A stretch of 64,000 nucleotides of DNA from an uncultured Bacilli bacterium (lineage in GTDB: Bacteria > Bacillota_I > Bacilli_A > RF39 > UBA660). The notes beneath the pieces were generated by a model. That model saw only the letters and a program-made list of their open reading frames with translations. It did no database searches and was not told the DNA's origin. A program made the position numbers and the translations under genes. Each line of letters begins with the position of its first letter. The first letter of the stretch is position 1. Positions 44,238 through 45,487 of this stretch are shown here, one piece after another. The stretch is taken from positions 32,349 to 96,348 of the forward strand of contig CAJUKB010000002.1 of assembly GCA_910587325.1 (NCBI GenBank). The letters run 5' to 3'.

Positions 44238-45428
44238 CTATTCCTTATTTTTTAATGATAACTTTGCTATTTCTACTTCTTCTATTGGTAAAAAATAGTA
44301 CTCATAGTTTTCGCATATTTCGTAATAAAAGCTGCTTACACTTTTTTCCCAGCGTATAATTTCTTCATATAGTTCTTTTTCCTTTTCAGGGTCAGGCATC
44401 TCTTTTCGACCTGCTACGTGATAACAAGCTAACTTTTCTAAACTATCCATGTTATATTCATTATAATGTCTTTTAAAGTTTCCACAAAAACAGATAATTC
44501 CTGCTTCTGGAGTTGGATAGGCTAAATGTTCTCCATTGTATTTCATTCCTCCAAAATTATTACGTGTATTGGATGAATAACTTCCATACATGCTGATTTC
44601 TGTATAAGATGCAGAAAGAGCTATACTTTTATCTTCTATTTTAAAGAAATCACAAATCTTTCCAACAAATGTACTATATTTTTCTCCTGTACTTAAGTAA
44701 AAACTATTTAAGTTATTATGAGAAGCAGTTGTTATTTTCTCGGTTGTTACTAATTCTTCTTTATTATAATCAATGTCTAAATCTCCACGATTAAGAAGAT
44801 AAATAAAAAACAAACAAGCGGATTCTGGAGATGTAATTTCATATTCTTCAGGAATTACATTTTCAAAATTTGTATAATGGTTTGTATAAGTTTTTGCAAG
44901 TTCTATTACCTTTTTAGCATCGAAATGAAAATATTTACTATATTCACGTAAGTAAGATTCATATATAAGATTTTCATCGTCTTCGTCTTCTGGGATGGTA
45001 TAAGATGCAATTAAATCATCTATTTCTTTTTGAATTTCTAAATCATTTTTCTCATATTCATTCTCTATATTGTAAGGGATTTCTATTTTTTCTAAAATCA
45101 TTTCTTCTGCATAACTTTTTTCAACATTTTCTTTACTTGCTAAAGCAGTAGTTACAATTATGCAAATTGCAGCAATATATTTTGCTTTATAAGAAAGTGG
45201 AAATCCATTTAAATTTTTTTCATATTTTTTTAATAATATATTACAAATCTTTTCATATTTCTTATTCACAATAAAAGATTGTGACATAGAGTTAATTATC
45301 ACAGGAGTACTTTTTATATTAACTCCTTTTGCAGAAATTTTATTTAATATATCTAGGTAGATGCACCTCCTAATGTACCCCCCCCCCAGGATACTTCCTA
45401 AAGTTGAGACATTTTTCACTTTCTTCAC
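44238..45428 (-). CDS. Hypothetical membrane-anchored protein with a G10 tract in codons 14-17; weak GH73/glucosaminidase-like block
   Basis: The tracked start at 45428 is a GTG. A second GTG at 45419 lies 6 nt after AGAGGTG. TM segment AKYIAAICIIVTTALA. TEISMYGS...NNFGGMK loosely matches ETGWGKS...NNLFGIK of glucosaminidases. Confidence 0.5.
   Translation of the reverse strand: MKKVKNVSTLGSILGGGYIRRCIYLDILNKISAKGVNIKSTPVIINSMSQSFIVNKKYEKICNILLKKYEKNLNGFPLSYKAKYIAAICIIVTTALASKENVEKSYAEEMILEKIEIPYNIENEYEKNDLEIQKEIDDLIASYTIPEDEDDENLIYESYLREYSKYFHFDAKKVIELAKTYTNHYTNFENVIPEEYEITSPESACLFFIYLLNRGDLDIDYNKEELVTTEKITTASHNNLNSFYLSTGEKYSTFVGKICDFFKIEDKSIALSASYTEISMYGSYSSNTRNNFGGMKYNGEHLAYPTPEAGIICFCGNFKRHYNEYNMDSLEKLACYHVAGRKEMPDPEKEKELYEEIIRWEKSVSSFYYEICENYEYYFLPIEEVEIAKLSLKNKE
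45378..45387 (-). repeat. Homopolymeric G10 (C10 on plus strand) inside the 5' coding region
   Basis: I counted ten consecutive C at 45378-45387. It is the only G/C run of this length I saw in the window. Confidence 0.9.
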
Positions 45429-45458
45429 CTCTTTCGCTTCGTAAGCACAACAGAAAGC

Positions 45459-45487
45459 ATTTTACTATACTTCACAATGCTTGTCAA
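45459..45487 (-). promoter_or_regulatory. Near-consensus sigma-A promoter for the G10-containing gene
   Basis: On the minus strand, TTGACA (45487-45482), 17 nt, TAAAAT (45464-45459), about 25-35 nt upstream of the GTG starts. Confidence 0.6.

Follow-up and report, generated by a model that had tools for sequence, protein, structure and literature searches.

What function could a run of ten guanines have near the start of a gene in an AT-rich genome? This question is raised by a gene located between spo0A and gpmI in an uncultured Bacilli bacterium. We analyzed it in a stretch of 64,000 nucleotides, here called the window (positions 32,349 to 96,348 of contig CAJUKB010000002.1, assembly GCA_910587325.1), together with related loci (L numbers) and their protein products (P numbers). 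The run, hereafter G10, reads as C10 on the plus strand at 45378-45387 and as G10 on the coding (minus) strand, and it encodes L-G-G-G at codons 11-14 counted from the second GTG of the open reading frame (ORF). G10 is very probably a classic slipped-strand ON/OFF switch of the simple sequence repeat (SSR) contingency type, acting on a gene whose product resembles a wall hydrolase.

Direct reading gave exactly ten G residues in the coding-strand context GTG AAG AAA GTG AAA AAT GTC TCA ACT TTA GGA AGT ATC CTG GGG GGG GGG TAC ATT AGG AGG TGC. All other G or C runs were 5 nt or shorter in a scan of the whole 64-kb window, G10 being the sole run longer than 5 nt. At the 30.4% GC of the window, about 0.002 G/C runs of at least 10 nt are expected under an independent and identically distributed or a first-order Markov model, and one was observed. 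Tandem Repeats Finder detected no other convincing SSR in the whole window, and Rfam at gathering thresholds gave no match in it.

The first-pass annotation had noted this run near the 5′ end, its singularity in the AT-rich window, and a frame of 396 codons that is open at G10 and closed by TAG 8 codons after the tract at G9 or 2 codons after it at G11. The reading and the scan described above confirmed the first two points, and the third was reproduced by editing the tract in silico from G5 to G14 in three lineages, namely the window and two sisters. G7, G10, and G13 left the frame open, giving 392, 393, and 394 amino acids (aa) from the second GTG. G6, G9, and G12 ended in ..GGT ACA TTA GGA GGT GCA TCT ACC TAG (peptide ..GTLGGAST*), 8 codons past the tract, and G5, G8, G11, and G14 ended in ..GTA CAT TAG (peptide ..G-V-H*), 2 codons past it. 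The TAG closing the −1 frame (G6, G9, and G12) is located at 45353..45355 and that closing the +1 frame (G8, G11, and G14) at 45370..45372, both on the minus strand. Every off-frame length in this range yielded a product of 14-22 aa, and the same was found in both sister lineages.

We compared the tract length among near-identical strains. Scans of JGI metagenomes with the conserved DNA pattern of the promoter and 5′ untranslated region (5′UTR) and with the protein alignment gave no matches; therefore, the tract was sampled through members of protein clusters. DNA was fetched behind the products of the 90%-identity cluster of P0001, which are 393 aa (..LGGGY..), 392 aa (..LGGY..), or 349 aa (from Met48) long, and the tract was read in each contig. 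Eighteen locus copies were compared, comprising the window and 17 contigs from independent assemblies with at least 99% aa identity. G10 was present in nine copies (the window, L001-3, L016, L017, L019, L020, and L022, with two further similar places alongside L001), G7 in four (L023, L025, L026, and L029, with seven further similar places), G9 in two (L015 and L021, none further), and G8 in one (L018, with one further similar place). The sequencing runs concerned include SRR31203343/44/70 and SRR32520788 for G7, SRR24878955 for G8, SRR21846309 and ERR15105057 for G9, and SRR33137233 and SRR27190647/49 for G10. The tract reads G6+N10 at L024:1396-1412, in the NCBI metagenome-assembled genome (MAG) GCA_948716395.1 (CAPUWB010000022.1), where an assembly gap lies exactly at the tract. 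The flanking haplotype of L024 is the same as that of the window, and annotation places the start of its gene at Met48 (349 aa).

The flank shared by these copies is 1,560 nt long and contains 8 variable sites, 7 haplotypes, and no indels. As a control, the flanks contain ten A/T runs of 6-7 nt, whose length was constant in every copy. Haplotypes TA|GCACGG and TA|ACCCTG each carried both G10 and G7, haplotype TG|ACCCTG carried both G10 and G9, and G9 was found on two haplotypes in two unrelated samples. The different lengths on identical haplotypes, together with the presence of G9 on two haplotypes, require a minimum of five independent length changes within 10 nt, compared with 8 substitutions in 1,560 nt. 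The tract is in all likelihood a site of localized hypermutation. The 349-aa gene calls were considered as a marker of the OFF form and rejected, as a Met48 start was called on G10, G9, G8, and G7 contigs alike; since several of these contigs carry G10 or G7, the 349-aa call reflects a start choice of the gene caller.

The tract is also maintained over larger distances. Two sister lineages, L004 (P0002, 68% aa identity) and L005/L028 (P0003/P0026, 66%), have a pure G10 at the same place, and the flanking codons differ: AAT TCG GGG GGG GGG TAT in the sisters and ATC CTG GGG GGG GGG TAC in the window. In the codon usage of this genome, GGG accounts for 8.1% of Gly codons, CTG for 0.9% of Leu codons, and TCG for 2.8% of Ser codons. 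The chance that L/S-G-G-G would be spelled as G10 (CTG/TCG-GGG-GGG-GGG) by codon usage is 5e-6 to 1.5e-5. Selection probably acts on the tract as DNA and not as peptide, because pure G10 is kept despite the codon bias and the changed neighboring codons.

In a fourth lineage (L011-13 and L027), the tract is interrupted as G5AG4, GGGGGAGGGG. Downstream of it, a 1-nt deletion cuts a 33-codon N-terminal piece from a GTG-started ORF of 363 aa (P0027; L011:906-1351 and L027:174-341). L011-13 contain a further frameshift and an A8 run, and the gene is called there as pieces of 45, 93, and 281 aa. The fourth-lineage gene would be either decaying or N-terminally shortened. Distant homologues (35-43% identity) are without the segment of approximately 12 residues that bears the tract.

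The meaning of the frame depends on where translation starts. The gene has its own predicted promoter, TTGACA-17-TAAAAT (45487..45459, minus strand), which with 11/12 consensus matches and a 17-nt spacer was the best of the region in a consensus scan. Its −35 hexamer TTGACA (45482..45487) is invariant in all aligned lineages, and its −10 hexamer TAAAAT (45459..45464) is invariant in all lineages. A Shine-Dalgarno (SD) sequence, AGAGGTG, was read directly at 45426..45432 on the minus strand, and the block GAAAGAGGTGAAGAAWGTGAAAAAT is kept in the window lineage and the two sister lineages. Both the near-consensus promoter and this ribosome-binding site (RBS) had been pointed out before and were found as described. 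The first GTG (45426-45428) overlaps the SD sequence. The second GTG (45417..45419, minus strand), 6 nt past GAGGTG, is the likeliest start codon, and public gene calls of 393 aa (P0001, P0020, P0021, and P0024) begin there. The ORF accordingly spans 44238..45419 on the minus strand with 393 aa, or 44238-45428 with 396 aa when counted from the first GTG. Distant tract-less homologues have N-termini that align with the MKN start (MKN-IKK-x-x-Y), and protein-level conservation is seen from the tract to position 48 (IYLDIL.KI..K..NIK).

Two downstream elements were examined as alternatives. The internal ATG of Met48 (45285..45287, minus strand) is the start of some 349-aa gene calls, including P0019, P0022, and P0025; no SD sequence precedes it, it is not conserved, and its position is Ile in the sister lineages. 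A perfect SD-like sequence, AGGAGGTG (45364..45371, minus strand), lies immediately 3′ of the tract, and no ATG, GTG, or TTG follows within the next 15 nt, in agreement with the first-pass annotation, which had seen no usable start there. The sister lineages have TAGAAAGAG or TAGATGGAG in its place. As a true RBS or a frameshift stimulator, AGGAGGTG was rejected, being without a start codon, unconserved, and downstream of the run, and it was judged incidental. The tract most likely lies inside the translated ORF at codons 11-14, with initiation at GTG 45419, because the SD-GTG-MKN start and the N-terminal residues are conserved and Met48 and AGGAGGTG are not.

Other features were observed around the promoter. 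The motif gCTTTcTGTTGTGc directly follows the −10 hexamer (TAAAAT-gCTTTcTGTTGTGc, 45440-45464, minus strand) and is conserved as DNA across lineages; its counterpart in L008 is TAAAATTCTTTACTGTTGTG, where the protein is just 41% identical. This motif could be an operator or a 5′UTR element. Directly after the spo0A stop codon, an AT-rich hairpin, GATAAC-n8-GTTATC, is followed by TTTTTTATTT (45557-45589, minus strand). It looks like an intrinsic terminator that would part spo0A from the gene studied here, and with fewer than 3 G-C pairs it was not called by the consensus scan.

The product of the gene is predicted to be a rapidly evolving type-II membrane protein. A single hydrophobic, putatively transmembrane (TM) segment, AKYIAAICIIVTTALAS, was found at aa 82-98 (45135..45185, minus strand; Kyte-Doolittle maximum 1.77), and the AlphaFold2 (AF2) model has a helix at 81-97. 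The N-terminal 80 aa contain 14 K/R and 3 D/E, whereas the 50 aa after the TM segment contain 17 D/E and 4 K/R. An N-in/C-out topology is predicted because the N-terminus before the TM segment is basic and the linker after it is acidic.

The C-terminal region (aa ~150-380; 44289..44981, minus strand) resembles the GH73 (N-acetylglucosaminidase) domain and has the lysozyme-like alpha-helical GH73 fold. Values in the structure table were 11.6 for 8yxk (C. difficile phage endolysin Ecd09610), 10.1 for 7pj3 (S. pneumoniae LytB), 9.9 for 4qdn (Thermotoga, FlgJ-type), and 9.8 for 7qfu (E. faecalis AtlA), and Foldseek returned the same GH73 family with weak E-values. The family profile matched the GH73 domain of 8yxk (E 1.7e-4), aligning ..SysEig..(13)..NNFgGm with SIHETG...NNFFGMK. 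E277, N290, N291, G294, T306, and E308 are invariant among 18 homologues, and E277, the putative catalytic Glu, which in GH73 belongs to an ..E(S/T)G.. motif upstream of NN.FG.K, stands opposite the E of SIHETG in 8yxk. PF01832 matched 3 of the 18 homologues, at best with 2.9e-5. Weak matches of the window protein to CycT2 and Shikimate_DH (E 0.05-0.08) were disregarded. The family comprises 287 representatives at E ≤ 1e-3 and 67 at E ≤ 1e-30, among 1.84 billion. The first-pass annotation had suggested a cell-wall-active surface protein with one TM segment, and the hydrophobicity profile, the AF2 model, the profile match to 8yxk, and the structure comparison all speak for this idea. We regard the product as a putative membrane-anchored GH73-like peptidoglycan hydrolase.

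Several points weigh against a switch of a wall hydrolase. On the side of the product, the window protein alone gave no PF01832 match at E ≤ 1 and no NCBIfam match, and its catalysis is a prediction. On the side of the tract, all lengths were read in consensus contigs, and the sampling of OFF forms hinged on gene callers picking Met48. G homopolymers are more prone to length errors than A/T runs in short-read sequencing with de Bruijn assembly, and the single-sample G8 and G9 lengths, on 1-2 contigs each, could be homopolymer artefacts. If this argument is extended to all variants, the gene would have a fixed G10 coding for Gly3, and G7, G8, G9, and the N10 gap would be errors of Illumina chemistry and k-mer assemblers, which are prone to failure at long G runs. 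We consider this very improbable. G7, which differs by 3 nt, was read in at least 11 contigs, which stem from at least 4 runs and represent two haplotypes, and in our judgment it cannot reasonably be a homopolymer error. The two G9 copies come from unrelated samples with different haplotypes, the 1,560 nt contain no other indel even in the ten A/T runs, and errors would leave the conservation of the tract against codon bias unexplained.

A further point is that 13 of the 16 resolved copies have in-frame lengths; the OFF state may be rare, or it may be a dead end. The fourth lineage also seems able to do without the N-terminal 33 residues or the entire gene. These observations, together with the fast divergence of the gene and the disrupted 5′ end and further frameshifts of the fourth lineage, would suit a different explanation, in which the tract is a hypermutable liability, its out-of-frame forms are one-way loss mutants of a dispensable, fast-evolving gene, and the run is kept not for mutability but for another reason, such as a Gly3 hinge or mutational bias. 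However, a Gly3 hinge would use GGA/GGT in this genome instead of the rare GGG (8%), and it needs no preceding codon ending in G, yet CTG and TCG both do. Unselected G10 runs decay, as seen in G5AG4 of the disrupted lineage, and the occurrence of G10 at three orthologue positions and in a neighboring gene, described below, points to selection for mutability. We regard the liability explanation as unlikely.

It is also conceivable that the tract lies in a leader, with initiation downstream of it at Met48 or at a non-canonical codon after AGGAGGTG, so that it has no effect or exerts one by way of a short upstream ORF. The perfect AGGAGGTG, the Met48 starts picked by some gene callers, and the 363-aa ORF of the fourth lineage (P0027), which starts at GTG without the tract-bearing N-terminus, could be read in this way. 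The start-site comparison is difficult to reconcile with it, since AGGAGGTG is unconserved with no start codon in reach, Met48 lacks an SD sequence and is replaced by Ile in the sisters, and both the residues from the tract to position 48 and the SD-GTG-MKN start, homologous to the N-termini of tract-less relatives, are conserved. A related idea is programmed ribosomal frameshifting or transcriptional slippage yielding two products. A gene of this type was rejected, because the zero frame is open at G10 and both other frames close after 2 or 8 codons in three lineages, leaving no second product. To this pair of ideas we assign the lowest probability among the alternatives considered.

The slipped-strand ON/OFF layout proposed in the first-pass annotation was supported by each comparison made here: tract length is not uniform on near-identical backgrounds (G10, G9, G8, and G7), two sisters at 66-68% aa identity keep pure G10 instead of mixed codons, and the data do not support initiation downstream of the tract. 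The gene has every sequence-testable defining feature of the SSR contingency class, that is, a slip-capable tract (~7-8 nt or more for G/C) in the ORF past the start, truncation by frameshift, length variation between strains, and conservation of the pure repeat against codon bias. We propose that transcription would be constitutive from the near-consensus sigma-A promoter of the gene, with translation from GTG 45419. Slipped-strand mispairing at replication would add or remove G residues; we infer this mechanism together with its reversibility and switching rate. Lengths of 3n+1 (7, 10, and 13) would give the protein of 392-394 aa (ON), which would have a basic N-terminus in the cytoplasm, one TM helix followed by an acidic linker, and, outside the cell, a GH73-like peptidoglycan glucosaminidase domain. 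Other lengths would lead to a TAG 2 or 8 codons past the tract and to a peptide of 14-22 aa (OFF). With the frame set by slippage, the population would consist of a mixture of cells with and without a wall-active surface enzyme, from which a selective benefit could arise.

The genomic setting of the gene, denoted X below, was compared in related loci. L006-L009 and L028 have kept the order pgk-tpi-spo0A-X-gpmI-cadherin-like. One extra gene lies between spo0A and X in L010, and spo0A was not detected upstream of X in L011. X is 35-42% identical where its neighbors are 72-90% identical; for example, L007 and the window share 90% identity in PGK, 89% in Spo0A, and 85% in GpmI, and 42% in X. X diverges much faster than its neighbors, as exposed variable proteins do.

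In the window, X and spo0A stand between tpi and gpmI and break a glycolytic cluster, gap-(ABC transporter)-pgk-tpi-...-gpmI (42681-51153, minus strand), and this broken arrangement recurs in L006-L010 and L028. Two further surface-protein genes are located downstream of gpmI (39722-42655, minus strand). One product, of 466 aa, combines a signal peptide with a Cadherin-like beta-sandwich domain (PF12733), has a low-complexity region rich in S/N, and is anchored by a C-terminal TM segment; the other, of 481 aa, carries a type-IV-pilin methylation motif (PF07963) at its N-terminus.

The window also contains whiA (54186-55121) and genes for a PcsB-like M23 peptidase, ftsX, and ftsE (55189-58020), all within 54186-58020 on the minus strand. 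The last three predict a wall for the enzyme to act on, as they indicate a peptidoglycan wall and a divisome hydrolase system in a lineage labelled 'Tenericutes'. The relatives are MAGs labelled uncultured Tenericutes or Bacilli. A search of genome contigs with a closer alignment gave distant relatives only (35-42%), so the retrieved GTDB representatives do not include the species itself. Uncultured orders that are walled and carry spo0A have been described around Mycoplasmatales (PMC10868615), and the labels of the relatives fit these orders.

Poly-G tracts were also found at other positions of the orthologue and in an adjacent gene. In L008 (P0008), the orthologue at the spo0A-X-gpmI position has G10 in mid-gene at approximately codons 222-226 (EEW-GGG-KK; L008:3506-3515). 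In L030-33 (P0062), from four independent samples, the orthologue at the same position has G10 at codons 62-65, just past the TM segment (L030:1685-1694). The extra gene of L010 (CANROY010000017.1, a rabbit-gut 'uncultured Bacilli' MAG; L010:1161-1230) has G10 at codons 15-18. Read from the SD sequence AAGGAGAG and the ATG, its assembled G10 gives MKKLRNTLPTIERPMGGGYIK*, which is OFF, and G9 or G12 would link the start to an ORF encoding a membrane protein of 536 aa. This ORF had no Pfam match. Homologues of the L010 extra protein sit upstream of X in L011-L013.

The tracts of L008 and L030-33 are probably independent acquisitions of one kind of tract. Repeated independent gain of G10 at one locus would argue for selection for switchability or mutability and not for a peptide motif, because G10 occurs at three orthologue positions and in the neighboring gene. 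We tentatively consider the possibility that uncultured walled relatives of mycoplasmas (RF39/RFN20/ML615J-28-type gut Bacilli) have a lineage-wide poly-G 'phasome' similar to that of Campylobacter, to which the window tract would belong, with G10 gained independently at three or more orthologue positions; at present we would sooner doubt than accept it. If true, it would imply strong, repeated selection for bet-hedging on a wall hydrolase. Cells might gain by escaping a phage or host factor that recognizes the hydrolase, or by switching cell separation or spore-related wall remodelling.

Side observations were made on these tracts. The six tracts in the window (45376-45387, with the following TA), L004, L005, L008, L010, and L030 are exactly G10 in reference or ON assemblies, and TA follows every one of them (TAC, TAT, TAT, TAA, TAT, and TAT) despite differing frames. 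For four independent tracts, the rough chance of this rule is ~4e-4 before post-hoc correction. If real, a uniform 'G10 then TA' might reflect a preference of the replication and repair machinery of reduced genomes for this length or context. A close family member, P0028 (413 aa), has a GGG motif near the C-terminus at residue 408, ARKNYLGGGSPN, which may be another poly-G tract.

Public metagenomes hold G7, G8, G9, and G10 alleles on identical backgrounds. Because these alleles are already public, ON/OFF ratios could be measured from reads in vivo without cultivation. The orthologue tracts at different positions would represent a case of convergent evolution of mutability, and the findings suggest that surface exposure of a wall hydrolase is under fluctuating selection in these commensals. 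In MAG catalogues, such tracts also leave gaps in assemblies and make gene calls inconsistent (393, 392, or 349 aa).

In a few cultured pathogens, slipped-strand phase variation is textbook knowledge. To our knowledge, it is almost undescribed in uncultured, genome-reduced gut Bacilli between Erysipelotrichales and the mycoplasmas. Campylobacter jejuni has an AT-rich genome of ~30% GC that is not otherwise known to contain G/C homopolymers of ~8-13 nt. Its intragenic poly-G contingency loci mediate SSR phase variation of capsule, LOS, and flagellar-modification genes (PMC8437040, PMC6097035). The window gene shares with these loci an AT-rich genome of ~30% GC otherwise lacking such runs, an intragenic tract near the 5′ end, ON/OFF frameshifting with early stops, a surface-related target, and tract lengths that differ between otherwise identical strains. 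In contrast to C. jejuni, the host is an uncultured gut member of the Bacilli of Gram-positive type, the target is a GH73-like hydrolase and not a glycosyltransferase or modification enzyme, and the switching is predicted from sequence. Frameshifts in the C. jejuni peptidoglycan-hydrolase genes pgp1 and pgp2 give rise to morphologically distinct subpopulations, according to the abstracts of the reports (PMC5530802, PMC5133587). These are selected frameshifts and single-nucleotide polymorphisms (SNPs), and the abstracts describe no dedicated, conserved 5′ G10 tract.

Contingency loci with SSRs are also known in Neisseria and Haemophilus, for example poly-G in gonococcal pgtA (PMC2193922), and the concept of 'localized hypermutation' has been reviewed (PMC11868660). 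The coding-region homopolymer, the lineage-dependent presence of the tract, and the stochastic ON/OFF logic are common to these loci and the window gene, whereas the former are experimentally validated genes of Proteobacteria and the latter is supported by comparative evidence. Mycoplasma variable surface lipoproteins vary through the poly-A promoter spacer of Vlp and site-specific inversions (PMC11868660). They belong to the same broad phylogenetic neighborhood, Mycoplasmatales and related Bacilli orders (PMC10868615), and likewise involve high-frequency variation of surface proteins. Their mechanism is a promoter-spacer poly-A or recombinase-driven inversion instead of an intragenic poly-G frameshift, and their targets are lipoproteins of wall-less cells instead of a predicted wall hydrolase of a walled organism.

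Compared with known GH73 N-acetylglucosaminidases (PF01832; 8yxk, 7pj3, 7qfu, Listeria Auto 3fi7, and FlgJ), the window sequence is very divergent and misses the Pfam threshold. The predicted protein differs from them in its basic cytoplasmic alpha/beta N-domain, single TM helix, acidic linker, and lack of wall-binding repeats, and its family is small, with the gene fixed between spo0A and gpmI. The layout of the switch is already known from the systems above. New are the target, a divergent wall hydrolase fixed beside spo0A, the host, an uncultured genome-reduced gut member of the Bacilli, and the convergent placement of G10 in orthologues.

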